From: a virus
Taxonomy: Duplodnaviria > Caudoviricetes
Virus record (IMG/VR): IMGVR_UViG_3300001487_000106
Location: 29,193-93,192 of that record
Direction: 5' to 3' (one strand)
DNA length: 64,000 nt
Below are positions 3-31,208 of the stretch, piece after piece. Positions within the stretch are counted from its first letter, which is position 1; each line of letters starts with the position of its first letter. Both the position numbers and the translations under genes were made by a program. The notes below the pieces were generated by a model. It was not told the origin of the DNA. It made no database searches and saw nothing but the letters and a program-made list of their open reading frames with translations.

Positions 3-3000
3 CCATATCTTAATTATTTAGGCTCCCATAGGATAAGTGTACAAACTGCAAGAAAAGCAAAAAATTTTTCTATATTATATCTTGATAAGAATATAGTTAG
101 ATCAAATGTGTATGATACATTTATTAATGTATATGAGCAATGTAGAGATTATATCATGACTGTAGTTTATCAGTATGAGTTTAAATCTTTTATGGCATAT
201 TATGATAATTTTATGGCTATGTGTATAATGCTTATGGCAGAGTTACAACTGATAACTAAACAGATACCGTTTGAAGTTAAAAGAAATTTCTTCGATACTT
301 ATGCGGTAAGAATGTTGTATGAAGCATACAATATGCCATATGACATCTATGCTGATATAGATACACAAAATCTGATAGCACAGAATTTAAACATGATTAT
401 TATTAATAAGGCCACAAATAAAGTTATATATAATATAGCTAATTTACTTGGCTTTAATAATATGACTGCGTATAAATATTATCTTGCAAAAAAACACAAA
501 ACTGATCAATATGGTTGTCCCATATTTAAAACGATTGAGAAATTTAATACTGATACGGGATATAAAGAAACCGTACCAGATTATCCTGCGATGTATGATA
601 TTTATTTCCAAAAAGAAGAACTTATGGAGAATGATTTCATACGTTCTTTTAATTCTCAAGTAAATAGAGTAGAATATAATAATATAACACTTGATGATGC
701 ATTTTGGTATGAAGATCAAAATCTTATAGACCGTAAGTATCAGACCGAATATAATTTTGTTGAAACAAAATATTTGAGTTTAGGTCTTGAATATAATATG
801 ACGGAAGTTTTATTTGAGAATATATTACTTCTTAAATCTATATTCCATTATAAGGAAGTTATTGATGGTGTTAGTGTTTCTATACCTAAAATTATCAATG
901 GTGCTACAGTATCTTTATTTGATACTGTTATACTTTTAATCTGTCTTGTATTACGGAAACATAATTTGAGTGGAGATATAATTTCTCTTCCCACATCCAT
1001 CATATCAGTATTAGATTATCTTAATTCTAGAAACCAATCAGAACTTGGTCTGGTTGATACATTTTCTTTTGATTTTGATTATCTTATGTCTGAAGATGGT
1101 ATACGAGATATTGAAAATGTTAAAAAATCTCTTGGTAAGATAGTTCAAGGTTTAATTGATGAAGATGGAAATTATTATGTTTTTGATAATTCTCCGTTTT
1201 ATACCTATTATTCTGGTAGTAAAACAGTAGATGATAAACCTGTTGTACTTGAAAAAAATGTAAATCATTATACCGTAGAAAATCTTATAAAAGAGGGAAA
1301 AGTTGTTGAAGGATCTATTGATATTCATGGAGATGATGTTGATAGATTTGAAAATTATATCAAAAATGTTTTAGCTCTTGAAGGTGGACAAAAATCGAGA
1401 GCTGAAAAACTTGAAGCATTAAATCTTGTATATAAAAATATAAAAGGATTATATAGATTCATAAATGAAAAACTTCTTGATGAAGATGATAAATATAGAT
1501 ATAATTCTCTCAGAACTTTTTATCAAGCGGCTTTTTATGCTAAGGAAATACAAGATATATTTACTATTTCTTATACAGATATAGATGGTTCTACTCAAAA
1601 AAGGATTGCTAAATCATTTTTTGAGTATTTATATTATATAAATCCGATGCTGTATAGGTCAATTTTTCATTTTGATATAGATGAAGAATATGATACATTT
1701 AAGAGAACTCGTAACTTTCCTACATTCATATATAGCACAGTTGATGACCCCGATTCTCTTTTAGTTGTAGATGATAGCGACCCTCTCGGAGAAAATCAGA
1801 TACATTACAGCGATGTAGCTTCACATATTAGTAATGTAAAAGTTGGAGATCGAGTAAAAATATTTAGTAATCCTGAGGATTATAATGGATTTAAGCAGGC
1901 AGTTAATGCTGGTTTAATTGATGTTAAATATGATAATATAAGCGGTATAACTGAGGGTGAAGCTAATAATGCAAGTTTCATCAGTTCAAAGATATATTAC
2001 TTTATAAACCATATCATATCAAGATTAAAGACATTGATTGATGATATTAATTTTTCTCATATGTTAAATGGCGTATCATCATTACTTGAAGAATTATTAA
2101 TGAAAATGATTAAATTTATAAAATCATTCACTGTTGATTTCATAGGTTTAGATATCATTTTTATATGTGATTTTAAAGAAGAAAATTTATTACGATTAAT
2201 TGATAAAGTGCATTATATTGATAAAACAATAGTCCCTAAAGAAACACTTAACTTTAGTTTCTGGGATAGTATTTCTTCATATGTAAATTACAATCTTAAT
2301 GATAACTGTAAATTTACTGATATAATCCCAAAACCATGGTTTACGGATCCTGATAATACTGGAAAAATGCCGTCAAAGCGTGGTATATTTGCATGGTATG
2401 ATTCTACATCAACTATAACAGCAGCAGCAACTTCTGTATTATTATCAAATTTAATGAGCGGAAGTAGCGGTAGTGAAGGAGAAATAGACACACCTATATC
2501 AATGCTCATATCATCACCTGCTGTTGAATTAATTGATGATTATTTTAATCTGATTTATGATGAGAGATATACAAATGATCCATTAAGTTATAATGGCGGT
2601 TTCTTTAATATTAGTCCCAATTATATTATACCAGATAGATATAAATATACCGCATATATAATCTGTAAATCAGAAGATATTGGTGATTTTACAGGTTTTC
2701 CTGATGCTGGTAAAGGTCCCAGTGTTAGATTTATAAGTACACCAATTGTTGATATACATTCTGGATTAGGAACCACGAATATAAATATACGAGAATATAT
2801 TCCAAAAACAAGTTCAATAGAACTCAAAAATGATTTTGTTGAAATAATCACAAATAAAGATGTTAGGGATTGGCATGTAATAGGTATATCTCAATCAAAT
2901 AATACAATTAAAATTTATATTGATGGTGAACGTTGTCTTGATCATACATTTTCAAATCTTGGAGATTTTGATGATGGCGATACAGCAGATTTCAATGTGA

Positions 3001-3179
3001 AAGTAATGCCAAATAATAATATTGGTAAAGGATTTAAAGATGTTCATAACGGATATTCACATTATATGTGTGGTATTCAAATGAAAGCATATCTGGTTGC
3101 TAATATTAATCACAATAGTTCAGAGTTACAAGAAAATACAAAATGGCTCTATAATAAATATATTGGTTCGCTTGATTAA
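3..3179 (+). CDS. Large virion structural protein (baseplate/tail-associated), 5'-truncated by the window; possible C-terminal LamG/ConA-like domain
   Basis: The frame is open from position 3 (PYLNYLGSHR...), so the listed start at 108 is not the true start. C-terminal WHVIGISQSNNTIKIYIDG resembles LamG-type lectin folds. Confidence 0.55.
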   Translation, partial: PYLNYLGSHRISVQTARKAKNFSILYLDKNIVRSNVYDTFINVYEQCRDYIMTVVYQYEFKSFMAYYDNFMAMCIMLMAELQLITKQIPFEVKRNFFDTYAVRMLYEAYNMPYDIYADIDTQNLIAQNLNMIIINKATNKVIYNIANLLGFNNMTAYKYYLAKKHKTDQYGCPIFKTIEKFNTDTGYKETVPDYPAMYDIYFQKEELMENDFIRSFNSQVNRVEYNNITLDDAFWYEDQNLIDRKYQTEYNFVETKYLSLGLEYNMTEVLFENILLLKSIFHYKEVIDGVSVSIPKIINGATVSLFDTVILLICLVLRKHNLSGDIISLPTSIISVLDYLNSRNQSELGLVDTFSFDFDYLMSEDGIRDIENVKKSLGKIVQGLIDEDGNYYVFDNSPFYTYYSGSKTVDDKPVVLEKNVNHYTVENLIKEGKVVEGSIDIHGDDVDRFENYIKNVLALEGGQKSRAEKLEALNLVYKNIKGLYRFINEKLLDEDDKYRYNSLRTFYQAAFYAKEIQDIFTISYTDIDGSTQKRIAKSFFEYLYYINPMLYRSIFHFDIDEEYDTFKRTRNFPTFIYSTVDDPDSLLVVDDSDPLGENQIHYSDVASHISNVKVGDRVKIFSNPEDYNGFKQAVNAGLIDVKYDNISGITEGEANNASFISSKIYYFINHIISRLKTLIDDINFSHMLNGVSSLLEELLMKMIKFIKSFTVDFIGLDIIFICDFKEENLLRLIDKVHYIDKTIVPKETLNFSFWDSISSYVNYNLNDNCKFTDIIPKPWFTDPDNTGKMPSKRGIFAWYDSTSTITAAATSVLLSNLMSGSSGSEGEIDTPISMLISSPAVELIDDYFNLIYDERYTNDPLSYNGGFFNISPNYIIPDRYKYTAYIICKSEDIGDFTGFPDAGKGPSVRFISTPIVDIHSGLGTTNINIREYIPKTSSIELKNDFVEIITNKDVRDWHVIGISQSNNTIKIYIDGERCLDHTFSNLGDFDDGDTADFNVKVMPNNNIGKGFKDVHNGYSHYMCGIQMKAYLVANINHNSSELQENTKWLYNKYIGSLD

Positions 3180-3192
3180 AATATCAACCGAA

Positions 3193-3205
3193 AACATCAT
3201 AATAA
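3193..3205 (+). promoter_or_regulatory. Late promoter AACA-N6-TAA
   Basis: aaca tcataa taa upstream of the RBS of 3239. Confidence 0.7.
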
Positions 3206-3238
3206 CATAAAAATATTCAAGAAAGGAATGATTTATAA

Positions 3239-4276
3239 ATGCCTATAATTGCATCAGATAAATTATCTATTCAGGATCAGCGTCATGTTGCTATACCTGA
3301 TTTCCCTGAAATATTGAAGAAGTCCCCTACATTATGGAGAAAGACAGAAATTCTCTGTAGTAATGGAGAAATAGTCAATAATCCAAATGGTAAGTCATCT
3401 TTTGCACCAGGTTCACCATTTTCAATATCATCCAATATGGTTCCTCTTGGAGGAGTTCAATATGTCATGGAACAACTTTTTGGTGTTAAAGGAGAAATCG
3501 AGATTCCTACCCTTTACGACATAACTAATACAAATGATAGCAGCCTTGCTCATTTTGCTAGTTATGAGCATCCAGTAGGACCCCCTAATTCAGTTCCTCC
3601 CGATGAAACATATACAACACCTGATGGTGAAAAAACTATTATTTATAGACATGGACATTTAGTACAGCTTTTTGGTATTGGTATCACTGGTACTGCTGAA
3701 AATGATATAACTAAATTTCCTGTGAACTACAGAGAAAATTCACTGGATATAAGTATTGCATCTGAAGATGGACAGACTATTCAGGGTGCAATGGTACCTT
3801 TCAGGTACACCAATGCACAGCTTCAAGCTGAAAGTGAACGTAAAAAGTATTTTGGTAAAGTTAAAAATGATGAAGGTATTATATCATACTATCTTAAACG
3901 ATTTGAAGCCGAACCCACTATCAAACACGTGTGGAAAATTGGTGAAGATGAGGAAATAGATGATGCAGAAAATGTAGTATCTGAAGAAGATGTACGTAAA
4001 AATACCAATTCATTAAATGATGTTGAATCATTTACCGAAATTTTCTTAAAGATTTCTAAAAAGGATGTAAAAGAGTGGTTTGCTGCTCTTGGTCAAGAAG
4101 ATAGGGCACGTGTTAATACGATTGCTTTATTTAGTGGAAGATTTATTACCGAAGGAACCCTCGATACTGATGGAGATTATCAGGATGTAAGACTATTTTC
4201 TAAACTTACAATTCCTACAGAGTATCTTACATTATCTAGAGACCTTAATATCATTTACAGAGTATATGGTGCTTAA
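3239..4276 (+). CDS. Putative virion structural protein
   Basis: 345 aa ORF, RBS gaaaggaa, late promoter, structural-gene context. Confidence 0.5.
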   Translation: MPIIASDKLSIQDQRHVAIPDFPEILKKSPTLWRKTEILCSNGEIVNNPNGKSSFAPGSPFSISSNMVPLGGVQYVMEQLFGVKGEIEIPTLYDITNTNDSSLAHFASYEHPVGPPNSVPPDETYTTPDGEKTIIYRHGHLVQLFGIGITGTAENDITKFPVNYRENSLDISIASEDGQTIQGAMVPFRYTNAQLQAESERKKYFGKVKNDEGIISYYLKRFEAEPTIKHVWKIGEDEEIDDAENVVSEEDVRKNTNSLNDVESFTEIFLKISKKDVKEWFAALGQEDRARVNTIALFSGRFITEGTLDTDGDYQDVRLFSKLTIPTEYLTLSRDLNIIYRVYGA

Positions 4277-25200: not shown

Positions 25201-26139
25201 GTGTATAATATGTATATTGATAAAAATACTAAAAATAAAACATTTCAGAATATGTTTTATGAACTACAGGATAAAGGAGTAAACTATGTTGGTTCATCAG
25301 AAATACTCAAAACTGAGAATAAATCGTTACTAAATTTTGATTATCAAAATATGCCAGAATCAGACCCAATATCTGGACGAAGTTATTATGATATGATTCT
25401 ATCAGAATGTAAAAAAAATATATGGTTTTTCTTTAGAGAGATTGTACGTATACCAATTATAGGGCAAGATAGTACGTATGATCATTCAATGCAGTTTCCT
25501 CTAAATAAAACGTCATTACTCATGATTTGGTGTTACGAAAATAAGATACCTTTTTTTGTAGTTGGTGATACAAAGAAATCAGAAATGCGAATCGTAACGC
25601 TACAGTTACTTTGTCTTTATGATTTTTTGTTTCATTATAACAGTACACCATATATGCACATCATAACCGATGAAAATGATGTTGTAAATCATCTTAGTGA
25701 TCTACAGGATGATTTTGAAACATATTCAAGCATTAATAGCGCTGTAATACCAAGACTACTTACTATGAATTTCTATCACGCTGTTACTGCAGGAAATATA
25801 AATAAATCTTTATCTTGTGGGATTGACAATATCAATTTTAAAAATGATGATGAGACAAAATATTTTGGAAACTATTTTGGATTCTCTGTGGGTAAAAACA
25901 AACATCTTTGTAAGATTTTAAGTACACTTAAGAAAACTATGCCAAATGATACTCATATAGCATTTGAAGCTAATATTCATGATATATGCGATAGTGATAT
26001 TGGATATTATATTCTTGATTTGATGCCTAAGATTACAACTGAATATATATCAAAAGAAGACGATGGTGAAAAGTTTACACATCAGCATTTTATTCAGAAT
26101 CATTTGAGAAATAGTATATGTGTGATAATTGATGAATAG
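25201..26139 (+). CDS. Degenerate paralog of the terminase large-subunit N-terminal region
   Basis: ILSECKKNIWFFFREIVRIP vs terminase IMTECMRNPWYYLREISRIP; no intact Walker A or B. Confidence 0.6.
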   Translation: MYNMYIDKNTKNKTFQNMFYELQDKGVNYVGSSEILKTENKSLLNFDYQNMPESDPISGRSYYDMILSECKKNIWFFFREIVRIPIIGQDSTYDHSMQFPLNKTSLLMIWCYENKIPFFVVGDTKKSEMRIVTLQLLCLYDFLFHYNSTPYMHIITDENDVVNHLSDLQDDFETYSSINSAVIPRLLTMNFYHAVTAGNINKSLSCGIDNINFKNDDETKYFGNYFGFSVGKNKHLCKILSTLKKTMPNDTHIAFEANIHDICDSDIGYYILDLMPKITTEYISKEDDGEKFTHQHFIQNHLRNSICVIIDE

Positions 26140-26279: not shown

Positions 26280-28011
26280 ATGGCTAAATCTCGTATTGCA
26301 AGAATAGGTGATAAGTTATATGACTTAGGAACACAGAATAGGTCATTTTTACAGGTTGCAAAAGATTTACAAACAGTTGGAATCAAAAATTGCTATTTTA
26401 TGCTTGAAATATATGATTATAGTTTGGTAAATATTGACCCGTTTTCTGTTGGACCCGATGGCCATACTAATTTAACACAAGATCAAATAACTAGAATTAT
26501 GACAGAATGTATGAGAAATCCTTGGTATTATCTTCGTGAAATATCTAGAATTCCTGATCCAGGTGGTACTGCTGTGCCATATAAGGCAAATAGGGGTAAT
26601 ATTGCACAGGCATGGTGTATTTTACATGGTTTAGACTCATGGTTAAATTTAACACGTCAACAAGGTAAAACACAGTCAGCAATTGCTATGGAAACATGGA
26701 TGTACTCATTTGGTACTTCGCAATCTCAATTTATATATATAAATAAATCGGGTGAAGATAGTAAAACAAATCTTAAGAGAACTGGTGACCAAATAAGATT
26801 TTTACCTGAATATTTAAGATTTGAATCATTTACTGATGATGATGGCAAGGTTACAAAAGCAACTAATAATGCTACAAAAATGGGACATCCTATAAATGGT
26901 AATACTATTATTACTAAAGCTAAAGCAACATCATATGATACTGCATTATCATTGGCTAGAGGTCTTACATCGCCAATACAACATTTTGATGAGGCTGAGT
27001 TTACACCTCATATAAAAACTATAGTAGCAAACTCGGTATCTACATATGAAACTGCAGCAGCTAGAGCTAAAGCGAATGGTGCTATGTATGCTCGTATATT
27101 TACTAGCACACCTGGAGATCTTGATTCACCTGCTGGTCAAGAGGCACAGGAAATTTTAGATAAGACTGCTAAATGGACCGAACGTCTTTATGATATGACT
27201 GAAGAAGAAATACAGGAATACATAGATTCACAAGGTAAAGATTGTAACAAGATTCTTTATATAGAATATCAGTATTATCAAATAGGATTAACTGAAGATT
27301 GGTTAAAAAATATATCTGCTAAAATTGGAGATCCCTTAACAGTAAGACGTGAAATACTACTTCAAAGATTACACGGTTCATCACTTTCTCCATTTAATCA
27401 AGAAGATATTCAATATCTTATTGAGATTGCTCATAAACCAATAGATGAAATGTGGTTACTTGAATATTATAGATTTGATATATACAAAAAACTTAATCCA
27501 CGTATAACTTATCTTATCGGCGTCGACTGTTCAACGGGAACTAACGGAGATAATAATGCTATTACAATATTGAATCCATATACGTTAGAAGTGGAAGCTG
27601 AATTTGAATGTTCATATATTGGTGAAACAAAATTTGAAGCATTACTTATAGAACTAATAGGTATTTTACCTAGAGCAGTATTATGTATCGAAAGAAATAG
27701 TGTTGGTGATTCCATTATAGACCATCTTCTTAATAGTAAAATACGTGCAAATCTTTATTATGATAGAGCTAAAGATTTAGTTGAAGATAATGCTATAGCA
27801 TCTGGTACTATTGAATCTATGCTTAAAAAACAAGCATCAATGAAATCATATTATGGAGTCTATACAGGTACTAAATCTCGTGAAGATATGATGGCTATTC
27901 TAGTAAGACATGTCCAAGAATATAAAGAAAAATTTATTACTCAAAACATAACAAGAGATATATCAAGATTGATAAGAACATCATCTGGTAAAATTGAGGC
28001 AGGACCCGGTT
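26280..28011 (+). CDS. terL: Terminase large subunit, exon 1
   Basis: Walker A TRQQGKT, Walker B HFDEAEF, FTST, nuclease IGVD and CIERN; ends ...EAGPG plus one T. Confidence 0.9.
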
Positions 28012-28380
28012 CAAAAAATCAAAAATTAAAAAGCATTCATCATGAGGACCGGGATAAACTCCTTTAATTGCGGGGAACTCTCGTTAGGTCTTAACTACTA
28101 AACTAATATTTATATTAGTGGCGAAGGGTAACTCCTTAGGTATAGTAAAAAGGTTAAGAATAGAGACAATCCGCAGCCAAGGCTCTTATTAAGAGCAAGG
28201 TTCAACGACTATCGAAAGCATAGCTTAAGAGAAATACTTAAGTAAAGAAGTGAGTAGAGTAGTGCCTATTTATAGGTTAGTTTTATGGTGATATTAGCCA
28301 TAAGTAATTCTATTAAAACGAAATGGGGAGCTCTTCATATTTGGTAATAGAATATGAAGATGATGATATAGTCTATATTG
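28012..28380 (+). mobile_element. Group I intron, ORF-less, 369 nt
   Basis: P1 CCCGGUU/GACCGGG(28047-53) with U-G at the splice site; P10 CATCATGAG with 3' exon TTCATGATG; P7 GACTA...TAGTC; terminal G; splicing restores GPG-F-HDD. Confidence 0.92.
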
Positions 28381-28778
28381 TTCATGATGACTCTGTAATG
28401 AGCTATCTAATGTGCCTTTATGTTTATTATCATGGTAATAATCTCCCTGTATTTGGAATTATTAAAGGTAAATTAAACGAAGATGAACAAAATAAAGGAT
28501 TGAAACATGCCTCTGAAATCGATCCATCATTAGTTGATCCTAGGTTGATAGAGTCTGTAAAAAAACAAGAGCAACAGATAGCTCAACAGGAACAATGGAA
28601 ACAGTTAATGAAAGAGGCTGCTATTAAAGCACAGAAAGATACGTATAAACTGGTAAAAGCTGGTGAAATTCAAAACACGGTTTATAATAACACACCTGGA
28701 GAAATAATCGAACAGATGGACGATGATACAAATGGTTCTATAGATTTGAGCTTTTTCAATAGTATAAACGGATTTTAA
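28381..28778 (+). CDS. terL: Terminase large subunit, exon 2
   Basis: Supplies the catalytic HDD motif (F-HDDSVMSYL), in frame after splicing. Confidence 0.88.
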
Positions 28779-28781
28779 CAA

Positions 28782-28829
28782 AAAAAAGATACAATATAAT
28801 CTTTACTCTCGATTATATTGTATCTTTTT
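28782..28829. terminator. Bidirectional intrinsic terminator
   Basis: aaaaagatacaatataatc / gattatattgtatcttttt. Confidence 0.85.
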
Positions 28830-29015
28830 ACATATCTATTTACGGTTTCATGTTGTGATTGAAATTAATCAATCACAATATCGCAATCATTAAAATCGGG
28901 ATACATTTTATTCACCTCCTTATTTTTTTAAGTATCCCGTAAATAGATAATAATACAAATAACGGTTTGTATCCTTTAAAAACCGTTATTTTTTATTTGT
29001 ATTATTTTTTATGCA
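28785..29015 (-). ncRNA. Candidate structured small RNA carrying a 13-aa sORF
   Basis: Promoter-like CCGCATA...TATATTAT at 29052-29021, several long stems, terminator at 28782-28829. Confidence 0.5.
28865..28906 (-). CDS. Small peptide MYPDFNDCDIVID
   Basis: Perfect SD AAGGAGGTG 6 nt before ATG. Confidence 0.45.
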   Translation of the reverse strand: MYPDFNDCDIVID

Positions 29016-29105
29016 AAAAAATAATATATATGTATTTATTCTGAATATGCGGTTTTATTATCATTATAACGTTACTATAATTTTTTATTGAAAGGAGACA
29101 TGATT

Positions 29106-30356
29106 ATGTCTATTGAAGAAAATACTATTAACTCGGAAATTATCAATTCAGAGGAAAATGAATCCAATCCTATGAATTATAAGGTTATAGTTGATCTTAT
29201 TAATGAAATGGAAGATCAGTATAAAACATTGAAGTCTTTAGGTGAAGAGACAATTCATACTGCATATGATCTTAAGCCGGAAACGCTTATAGATATAATT
29301 CCAATAACTAAAAATGATATAAAGGAAATGAGTAAAGAAGATGCTACAAAGTTTCTTAAAGCTCATAAATATAATATTAATATCAACGATGAACATGATC
29401 CATTAGAAGTTATGGATGCTGTTAAAGAGACTTCATTAAATATTCTTTCAGCTAAGATTGAGGCTGATAATATTCGTAAAGATTCGAAAGAAGTGCTTGA
29501 AGAATATTTTAATTATGCATCATCATCTAAAGCAAAAGAGGTCAGAATTCAGCGTCTTAATACATTAAAAGAAGCTGTTGAAAAGGAATCTGATGAGGGT
29601 AAGAAAAGAAAGATGATGCGAGAAATAAATGCAATGGAAGCATCACAAACTCTTTCATTTATTTTCGAAAGATTTAATTCAATAGGTTCTAAAGAAATTA
29701 AATCAATTAAGAATGCATTTTTTGATGCAAAACTTGGAAAAGAAATTGTTGATAGATATAAAAAGAAAATTATTAAGTTTGGTTTTGACCATAAACTTTA
29801 TAGATATTTCTTAAATCTTGAGGAGAATTTCCTTGAGGAAGAATACCATTGTTTTAATAATCTTTTCCTGTTTATATTTATGAGAGCAGTTGTTCATTAT
29901 GACCCATATAATAAGACAGACAAGCTCTATGTACAGGCTATGGTAACATCTATGACAAATCTTATTTATCATAGATTTGATTCAACTACATCAGAGGATA
30001 ATTTTGTTTCTATAATCAGAAAGGTTGTATCTTACTTTGATGAATATAGAGAATATTTTAAGGAAAATAATGAAACAGCACCCGATCATCCAACGAGAAT
30101 TGAATCAGATAATCGTTACAATAAGGAGAGGCGTGAACTCCTTATTAATAAAATGAATGAAATGAAGATAACTGATTATGATCCCAATGCATCTGCGGAT
30201 GAACTTCAGCAGTACTTAAATGACTCACTTGAGAAAATGATAAAGGAACAGCTTCCTGAGAAGAAAGAAGAAAATAATGAAAATGATATTGATGATAGTG
30301 ATACTGATGAGGTTTTTGATGAGCCTGAGAATCCAGTAATCAATGATGTAGAATAA
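29106..30356 (+). CDS. Hypothetical helical protein
   Basis: RBS gaaaggag favours ATG at 29100 or 29106; AACG-N6-TAA variant upstream. Confidence 0.75.
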   Translation: MSIEENTINSEIINSEENESNPMNYKVIVDLINEMEDQYKTLKSLGEETIHTAYDLKPETLIDIIPITKNDIKEMSKEDATKFLKAHKYNININDEHDPLEVMDAVKETSLNILSAKIEADNIRKDSKEVLEEYFNYASSSKAKEVRIQRLNTLKEAVEKESDEGKKRKMMREINAMEASQTLSFIFERFNSIGSKEIKSIKNAFFDAKLGKEIVDRYKKKIIKFGFDHKLYRYFLNLEENFLEEEYHCFNNLFLFIFMRAVVHYDPYNKTDKLYVQAMVTSMTNLIYHRFDSTTSEDNFVSIIRKVVSYFDEYREYFKENNETAPDHPTRIESDNRYNKERRELLINKMNEMKITDYDPNASADELQQYLNDSLEKMIKEQLPEKKEENNENDIDDSDTDEVFDEPENPVINDVE

Positions 30357-30374
30357 TAGATACGTAGTATTTTT

Positions 30375-30410
30375 AGAGAGATGAAGATTTTATCTTCATC
30401 TCTCTTTTTT
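30375..30410 (+). terminator. Intrinsic terminator
   Basis: agagagatgaagat / atcttcatctctct plus T run. Confidence 0.8.
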
Positions 30411-30430
30411 GTATTATCATTGATAAATAA

Positions 30431-30443
30431 AACAGAATCTTAA
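30431..30443 (+). promoter_or_regulatory. Late promoter AACA-N6-TAA
   Basis: aaca gaatct taa. Confidence 0.7.
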
Positions 30444-30473
30444 GAACTCTTCTTGTGAAAGGAGGTATAAAAA

Positions 30474-31208
30474 ATGAGTAGTTATTTTAGATCAGACCAA
30501 AAATTTATTTATCTTGAAAGACCATACTGTGAGTTTTATATACCAATGGATTATTTTGATACATCTGGTAAATTTGCAGAAGATGCTGGTCAAGTTATTA
30601 AAGTTCTTGGAATATTTAATATAGGTTTTTATGAGAATGGACAATTAGAAGAAATGAAGATATTAAATCTTCCTTCATGGATAAACGTTTATGTCTATGA
30701 TTATGAAATACGAAGAGTTGAATTACCCGGAGAACCTGTTCCAGTATCATGTAAGGTTTTAAAATTCTTCCATGGTAATAAAGTTATGGAAAGTTCAGTT
30801 ATTGAAGATAGTACAAACGCTGAAACTTATCTAGACTTTATTCTTAAAGGTAAAATACCTGCATCGGTTCCATATGATAAGTCTATTACTTTATGGAGAA
30901 AAAATCAACAAATGAATGGTGTAAATCTCGGTGTTCCTTCAGTTATTGAAGAACTGATATTATCAGCATCATATCGTGATAAAAATAATCCAACAAGTAA
31001 ATTTGCTCATGTGATTGGTAAAGACCCTAAAGGTGTATCATTATATGACTATAAAATGGCATCGGTACGACAGATATGCCAATACACGTCAACTTTCACT
31101 GCAGTAACATTTGAAGATATTGATAGTATGATTACTTCATCTCTAAATAGATCTAGAGATAAGATCCCAGAAGCTCAGTCCCCAATTGAACAAATCATTA
31201 AAATGTGA
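30474..31208 (+). CDS. Probable RNA polymerase beta' C-terminal fragment (virion RNAP)
   Basis: NGVNLGVPSVIEELILSASYRD and TSTFTAVTFEDIDSMITSS resemble bacterial RpoC GVKINDKHIEVIVRQM and [20 protein letters not shown]; late promoter. Confidence 0.55.
   Translation: MSSYFRSDQKFIYLERPYCEFYIPMDYFDTSGKFAEDAGQVIKVLGIFNIGFYENGQLEEMKILNLPSWINVYVYDYEIRRVELPGEPVPVSCKVLKFFHGNKVMESSVIEDSTNAETYLDFILKGKIPASVPYDKSITLWRKNQQMNGVNLGVPSVIEELILSASYRDKNNPTSKFAHVIGKDPKGVSLYDYKMASVRQICQYTSTFTAVTFEDIDSMITSSLNRSRDKIPEAQSPIEQIIKM

Follow-up and report, generated by a model that had tools for sequence, protein, structure and literature searches.

A putative early micro-protein gene in the spacer behind terL of an AR9-like giant phage

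The window analysed here (i.e., the whole 64,000-nucleotide stretch of DNA, in which positions are counted unless a relative is named) covers the right-hand 64 kb of a viral record of 93 kb whose completeness CheckV puts at 39%, and the spacer behind its terminase large-subunit gene (terL) holds, on the minus strand, a promoter-to-terminator unit with an open reading frame (ORF) of 13 codons. Based on comparison with relatives, we consider it probable that this unit is an early micro-protein gene of an AR9-like giant phage and that its product acts as a peptide. The same slot is occupied in 12 diverged lineages by an ORF of 12-56 aa driven by an early-type promoter and sharing a common motif (i.e., an aromatic residue, any residue, two acidic residues, T/S/C, three aliphatic residues of the V-L-V kind, and an acidic end). 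Phages of the AR9-like group have their own RNA polymerases and possibly uracil DNA, and their early biology is poorly known. Every element that the preliminary description of this locus had listed, from the promoter-like segment to the terminator, was found in its place, and these elements exceed chance, as judged by the fold z-score and by shuffles of the Shine-Dalgarno (SD) arrangement presented below.

Positions 28779-29105 are a true intergenic spacer between terL exon 2 and the next gene (ATG at 29106, with its own SD), because the terL intron occupies 28012-28380 and exon 2 occupies 28381-28778. The terL open frame at 26262-28067 matches PHROG 32359 (E 7e-45), and its nearest relatives are found in AR9/PBS1-type Bacillus and Staphylococcus jumbo phages at 34-32% identity. 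The record also carries a match to a beta-like protein of multisubunit RNA polymerases (PF00562, 25.2 bits, just above the cut-off of 23.4), and no match to PF00623 (beta') was found in this record, itself estimated to be 39% complete. Just upstream of terL, a 312-aa ORF (25201-26139, plus strand) matched the N-terminal part of terminase large-subunit PHROGs (E 8e-10) and has a counterpart upstream of terL in the relative L014 (27% identity); it may be a diverged terL-like paralogue. On the other side of the spacer, the end of a 416-aa gene (30286-30407, plus strand) gave a sub-threshold Rfam match to HrrF (33 bits vs. 77, E 0.003), which is probably a mere terminator-like hairpin.

The intron that splits terL is a 369-nt, ORF-less group I intron (28012-28380, plus strand), with the 5' splice site after U28011 and G28380 as its last base. 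Rfam Intron_gpI matched 28063-28219 (E 4e-8; 37 bits, under the gathering score of 50), blastn matched the polA intron of a Staphylococcus Kayvirus, and the two matches together cover 28054-28219. A candidate P1 pairing, CCCGGUU/GGACCGGG, was read by hand. Exon 2 (28381..28778, plus strand) was placed by three lines of evidence: the HDD C-terminal segment of the vB_StaM_SA1 and BpSp terminases falls on 28383-28466 by tblastn; terL residue 583, one codon, and HDD are joined in six intron-less relatives (L013, L014, L017, L024, L026, and L031); and one contig of run X1 joins 28009 to 28381. The spliced junction reads GPG-F-HDD and the terL stop lies at 28776-78, which corrects the annotation of the window, i.e., the listed 151-aa ORF is exon 2 of an intron-split terL. 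The idea that 28782-29052 is the 3' part of the group I intron was also ruled out, since exon 2 separates the two. As for the relatives, L008 (96% identical) has ~816 extra bases (2097-2912) just inside the 5' end of the intron, with a 268-aa ORF (2158-2964) that carries an HNH-type motif by our own reading (...IDHLDGNKMNY...NLEWCTYSENN...); the window's intron is without this ORF but has the same last residues, HHEDRDKLL. In L015-L029, the terL match is broken at residues ~133, 240, and 284 by gaps of hundreds of bases, and the HDD site is occupied in L012, L015, L049, and L052. In this clade, terL seems to be a hot spot of insertion, whether by introns or by other elements.

The minus-strand unit opens with an early (virion RNA polymerase type) promoter core, ACATATATATTAT (29021..29033, with TATATTAT at 29028-21), followed by TTTTTT and a G at 29014, the predicted transcription start according to the AR9 spacing rule (6 nt behind the core). 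In AR9, the early (virion polymerase) consensus is AAATATATATTAT-(6N)-G+1 and the late one is AACA-(6N)-TA/G, as given in the available part of PMC5312081; the minus strand matches 12 of the 13 positions of the former, plus the 6-nt spacer and the G at +1. The neighbouring gene (ATG 29106) has a late-type promoter, AACG-N6-TAA, at 29068..29080 on the plus strand, outside the unit, which was the only promoter-like site read on that strand, and the resulting back-to-back early/late arrangement at 29014-29080 is the same as that described for AR9 in the part of the source cited. By eye, a late form xAC[AGT]-N6-TA[AG] could also be read in L013, L015, L016, and L023, with N7 in L014. A CG-containing motif, CCGCATA (29046..29052; AAAnCG[CT]A in relatives), sits midway between the two promoters, with 15-17 nt to the early core and ~15 nt to the late AAC[GT]; by eye, relatives keep both the motif and these near-constant distances, and it cannot be assigned to one promoter. 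Allowing one mismatch, the 10-nt core occurs 14 times in the window vs. 10.8 expected, which is not above chance, and the promoter case therefore rests on conservation in relatives: in 11 of the 13 rows compared, the homologous ORF or its operon is preceded by strict TATA[TC]ATTAT-N6-G (relaxed in L015, none in L036). The proposal of a self-contained minus-strand unit with an early-type promoter, set opposite late structural genes, is thus upheld by the AR9 match (within the part of PMC5312081 cited) and by its retention in relatives, and we infer that the unit is transcribed early. On the other hand, its suggested membership in one set with a unit at 35.4 kb was not borne out: the promoter region there is without the TATATTAT core, and the 8-codon peptide encoded there, MFTIIKIP, is unrelated.

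The predicted minus-strand transcript would run from 29014 to ~28782 (~233 nt). Its minimum-energy fold includes a 5' hairpin (28947..29006) and a 13-bp closing stem with the 5' arm at 28937..28949 and the 3' arm at 28833..28845 (pair probabilities 0.34-1.0; >=0.96 for 11 of the 13 pairs). Within the domain so closed lie the SD, AAGGAGGTG (28913..28921), 6 nt ahead of the ATG at 28906, and the ORF (28865..28906), which encodes MYPDFNDCDIVID and ends in TAA (28867-65). The combination AAGGAGGTG-N6-ATG occurs once in the 64-kb window and in none of 100 shuffles, while AAGGAGGTG itself has 2 sites in the 64 kb vs. 0.16 expected. The stop codon lies in the loop of a hairpin (28853..28878; TTGTGATTGA at 28878-69 with TCAATCACAA at 28862-53; pair probability ~1), and the unit ends in a bidirectional intrinsic terminator shared with terL (28780..28829), which starts 2 nt after the terL stop. 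On the minus strand, the terminator consists of a stem (28824-11 with 28801-28788) and then 8 U at 28787-80, vs. a U-run of 5 on the plus strand; strong termination at predicted intrinsic terminators that end operons is reported for AR9 in the available part of PMC5312081. Assembled contigs of the RNA runs X2-X4 consisted of pieces inside neighbouring genes alone, none across 28782-29014, and run X1 (probably DNA) has an L008-type allele across 28850-29027.

To the viral and metagenome loci already in hand, a profile search with the neighbouring 416-aa protein added 21 and 23 loci, respectively. A minus-strand small ORF with the motif and a strong SD was found in the terL/next-gene spacer of 13 out of 16 syntenic viral loci and of 10 out of 12 syntenic metagenome loci examined; a hairpin and U-run 3' of the ORF are clear in 11 of 13 rows, weak in L036, and absent in L052. 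The micro-ORFs encode MGPILFEDTVVLD in L013, MDTNDTVIIEWDD in L014, MFFGEDSVVLVD in L015, MFFGEDEVVLID in L035, and MDEKEVIIDLSDTCIG (16 codons) in L016, so that forms of 12-16 aa occur in at least six diverged lineages (these five and window/L008) and persist where the identity of the neighbouring protein is only 43-53%. The other forms are longer: a 27-mer with DENTVLIEWDE in L020, 50-mers ending in CWCDDTVLGD in the L023 type, 53-55-mers ending in DWLDDTVLVED in the L028 and L049 types, 56 aa in L036, and 50 aa in L052, where the motif is internal rather than terminal. The gene is absent from L017, L021, L031, L040, and L053, and is therefore dispensable. MAFFT placed DFNDCDIVID of the window on DWLDDTVLVE, and the 13-mer appears to correspond to the C-terminal tail of the 50-56-aa proteins, a correspondence that rests on ~10 low-complexity residues and synteny, with no significant alignment score.

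Two further arrangements were seen in relatives. In L016, the early unit has a ~170-aa ORF (~2790-3300, minus strand) ahead of the 16-codon ORF, and this longer ORF ends in ...YLIYDDNSVLEE (YDDNSVLEE), a tail of the same kind. In the 53-aa lineages (L028 at 3236-3328, minus strand; L029; L046-L049), the early operon opens with a hydrophobic ORF of 28-30 aa, MILSIGMKILIGLISVSYLAYCGYERAVAE, before the protein with the acidic tail. Two other readings of the tail were rejected. A portable C-terminal tag does not fit, as this ORF is the only one with the tail when all open frames of >=10 aa in the 93-kb record are scanned by regular expression. Nor does it fit that the peptides mimic HDDS[VI]M, the terL segment at the intron site, as that segment is invariant while the peptides vary, and therefore the two do not co-vary.

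Whether the ORF is coding can be judged from its closest counterparts. Contigs L007 and L008 are ~96% identical to the window in DNA and keep the unit, and the differences within 350 nt are mainly in the 5' hairpin and the ORF. The L008 peptide is MYPDFNDTDIVIE vs. MYPDFNDCDIVID in the window; 9 of 39 ORF bases differ, and all six single-base codon changes are at third positions. When two independent pairs (window/L008 and L015/L035) are pooled, third positions account for 13 of the 14 codon changes that involve one base (binomial P=6e-6), and 12 differing codons are synonymous vs. 4 non-synonymous. On these comparative grounds, the third-position pattern is that of an ORF whose amino-acid sequence is under selection; in combination with the perfect SD, it leaves translation as the most parsimonious reading. 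The suggestion that this is a real micro-ORF is hence supported, its peptide being conserved through third-position changes. The peptide is acidic, with 4 Asp among 13 aa and no hydrophobic span, and the likeness to type I toxins that had been drawn does not hold for this reason.

The same comparisons bear on the alternative that the ORF is a decaying remnant, that is, an N-terminally truncated early gene of ~50 aa that has lost its function, whether transcribed or not. The more distant relatives do hold forms of 50-56 aa in this slot, five lineages are without the gene, and the window version has just 13 codons. Nevertheless, a synonymous to non-synonymous ratio of 12:4 and a bias to third positions are not expected of a dead ORF, the promoter, perfect SD, and terminator are all intact, and the 12-16-aa forms have been kept in at least six diverged lineages; we regard a remnant as quite unlikely. 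It is important to note that third positions of the micro-ORF (28865-28906 vs. L008 3762-3803) differ at 7 of 13, compared to 7.5-9% in the two flanking genes. For this excess (6 times the flanking genes; Poisson 7e-5 to 2e-4), simple purifying selection is no explanation, and the extra synonymous change could have come in as a patch, by recombination with a more distant allele, or have been selected at the level of the RNA sequence.

The RNA itself is strongly folded. The minus-strand RNA (29014-28782) has a predicted energy of -70.4 kcal/mol vs. -31.4 +/- 4.0 for 200 shuffles (z = -9.75, 0 as good), and the plus strand of the same stretch reaches -71.9 kcal/mol (z = -12.4); the plus strand folds equally well or better, and therefore folding does not choose the strand. 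The preliminary description had proposed a translational switch, in which the 13-bp stem and an overlapping 8-bp stem (28897..28939, 28939-32 with 28904-28897, leaving the SD and AUG in a 27-nt loop) compete. The two stems do share 3 nt, but they are not mutually exclusive, since a 10+8-bp form holds both: when the 8-bp stem is imposed, 10 bp of the long stem still pair, and the energy is -65.5 vs. -70.4 kcal/mol (4.9 costlier). In the ensemble of the full RNA, the 13-bp stem has a probability of ~1 and the 8-bp stem one of 0.07, and the 8-bp hairpin is predicted to form in a co-transcriptional intermediate. A switch is contradicted by this coexistence as well as by the SD being unpaired either way (0.75-0.92 for its core, GGAGGUG; 0.91 for the A and U of AUG), by a terminator hairpin that persists in the minimum-energy, centroid, and all constrained folds and is never touched by the competing stems, and by the region behind the terminator, which holds nothing but terL antisense (minus-strand ORFs of <=68 aa alone below 28782, inside terL). 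Leader-peptide control, which had also been suggested, fails because no regulated gene follows the terminator and no antiterminator/terminator alternative exists.

Both arms of the 13-bp stem are identical in L007/L008, the 8-bp stem is retained in L008 as G-U after a CCC to CCT change, and the 5' hairpin is preserved in L007/L008 by one C-G to U-A double change, with two further one-sided changes that leave, whichever strand is read, one G-U and one mismatch. SD-in-loop hairpins like the 8-bp one of the window are predicted in L014, L020, and L035. Of the 8 units folded, all but L016 place the SD and start in a domain that is closed by stems peculiar to the lineage, and a stop-codon hairpin recurs in 7 of the 13 rows compared; this recurring topology is more easily reconciled with tuned initiation, or with a message that is compact and resists nucleases, than with an on/off device.

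Such a fold raises the alternative that the RNA is the effector, i.e., a small regulatory or structural early RNA that its mini-ORF serves through protection by ribosome loading or through nascent-chain arrest in cis. Consistent with this alternative, in addition to the very strong fold, the stop-codon hairpin, and the closed SD/start domain reached from different sequences, are two further points: L007/L008 differ from the window in the ORF but not in the closing stem, the SD region, or the terminator, and intergenic RNAs of <250 nt without assigned function are reported in giant phage 201phi2-1 (available part of PMC11512511). However, it is amino acids and not bases that are conserved in the ORF, the motif also ends 50-56-aa proteins, which cannot be mere leaders, and no gene follows the terminator. 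Further, an Rfam scan of 27500-30500 (E up to 5) gave no family at the gathering threshold, the sole match on the stretch at issue being MIR8008 on the plus strand (21.2 bits vs. 66, E 0.53), and, apart from the unit's own inverted repeats, the 93-kb record yielded neither another copy of the unit nor a site complementary to it. An RNA effector therefore seems unlikely to us.

The folding of the plus strand, slightly better than that of the minus strand, leads to another alternative, namely a function of the plus strand or of the DNA (a structured terL 3' UTR, a 3' intron part, or a mobile palindromic, MITE-like insert). The group I intron just upstream and two of the one-sided stem changes of L008, which remain G-U on the plus strand only, are in line with it. 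On the contrary, the intron ends at G28380 with exon 2 intervening, the terL terminator precedes the structured part, the promoter, SD, and codon periodicity are features of the minus strand, and one syntenic slot is kept across lineages. No other copy exists in the record, and the MITE-like element that had been raised as a possibility is countered by the unit matching only itself and its own inverted repeats within the 93-kb record and nothing in 50,697 phage records. We hold this alternative to be very improbable.

None of the searches linked the product to a known family, a known fold, or a cultured phage. PHROGs and Pfam searches with the 50-53-, 27-, and 30-aa ORFs gave best E values of 0.028 and 0.051, below the cut-off. 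A homologue search with the small ORFs found 10 close relatives, all unnamed, and the best ESM Atlas score (0.88) was to unnamed viral clusters. GenBank phages gave no match to the 53-aa relative, and the unit's DNA had no match in the 50,697 phage records. AlphaFold2 on the 53-aa relative (18 sequences) gave a mean pLDDT of 50.1 and a pTM of 0.21, which is unusable. A PDB profile search gave eight weak matches, the best being the MPP8 chromodomain (E 0.4); the likeness of the 50-53-aa forms to this domain spans alignment positions 23-45 (GK..Y.V.W.GY..DDDTWE) and is a lead only. The uracil-DNA-glycosylase inhibitors Ugi and p56 were considered for their acidic and aliphatic strands, and were not among the PDB profile matches.

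Returning to the reading of the unit as a micro-protein gene, events could proceed as follows. Transcription by the virion RNA polymerase would begin 6 nt behind ACATATATATTAT, at G29014, and would run up to the bidirectional terminator that lies right after the terL stop, giving the RNA of ~233 nt, which the 5' hairpin, 13-bp closing stem, and terminator hairpin would render compact and probably long-lived. Inside the closed domain, the unpaired perfect SD would drive translation of the acidic 13-residue MYPDFNDCDIVID, which may be a free-standing version of the motif that ends the 50-56-aa early proteins and, once, a 170-aa protein. Because the motif both ends these longer proteins (including the 170-aa one of L016) and stands alone in at least six lineages, we take it to be the working part. 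The peptide would most likely act early in infection by binding, as a short strand of acidic and aliphatic residues, to a protein of the host or the phage. Put more specifically, we tentatively propose that the 13-residue peptide is a stand-alone early effector, i.e., the motif cut loose from a 50-aa protein and translated from a dedicated, structured early RNA, which would bind by strand addition or acidic tail mimicry, with the fast synonymous change reflecting a second layer of selection on the RNA; this is a plausible conjecture rather than the expected outcome.

Should the proposal of a stand-alone effector be true, then of all viral peptides known to be cytosolic, translated directly, and under selection, this would be one of the smallest. 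Because ORFs of 12-13 codons are dropped by gene callers, a layer of early micro-proteins may be hidden in giant-phage genomes. Comparative evidence alone (conserved slot, early promoter, and third-position substitutions) singled out such a gene here, and tying the micro-gene to longer proteins with the same end motif suggests which part does the work.

Several known systems resemble the unit in part. Phage morons and small early host-takeover proteins are encoded by autonomous promoter-gene-terminator cassettes between conserved genes and are patchily present; likewise, the unit is an autonomous cassette between two conserved genes and is present or absent among relatives. Unlike morons, its product of 12-13 aa is far below the usual size, and the slot is kept over deep divergence rather than gained sporadically. 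RNAIII/hld, SgrS/SgrT, ErmCL, and TnaC all carry a very short ORF for a conserved peptide within a highly structured RNA, as dual-function RNAs or leader or arrest peptides, and the unit shares this design; it differs in that no regulated gene lies downstream, no antiterminator is present, and the motif also ends ordinary small proteins. The unit is also similar to the small RNAs of giant phages, as far as these are covered in the available part of PMC11512511, in being a short promoter-to-terminator unit of <250 nt at a conserved position. That source describes 11 such RNAs in 201phi2-1, three of them intergenic, and one in phiKZ upstream of gp182; they are presented there as non-coding and mostly 5'-UTR derived, whereas the ORF here shows coding-type selection, and the term "small protein" does not appear in the part of the text available. 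Among the literature matches listed, no jumbo-phage paper dealt with early small ORFs or micropeptides, and the supplementary tables of PMC5312081 and PMC11512511 may list comparable units. A further likeness is to the early transcription units of AR9, which, according to the available part of PMC5312081, have the same promoter core, spacer, and +1 G, a late neighbour of the AACA-N6-TA type, and an intrinsic terminator, and are set among or inside late genes (e.g., g190 within the intron of late g189). The difference from these units is that the one described here has a 13-codon ORF only and belongs to an uncultured relative whose terL is 34% identical to that of the nearest cultured jumbo phage. 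As a conserved gene of 12-13 codons derived from a protein tail, the unit belongs among the small early phage genes and is not a new kind of system.
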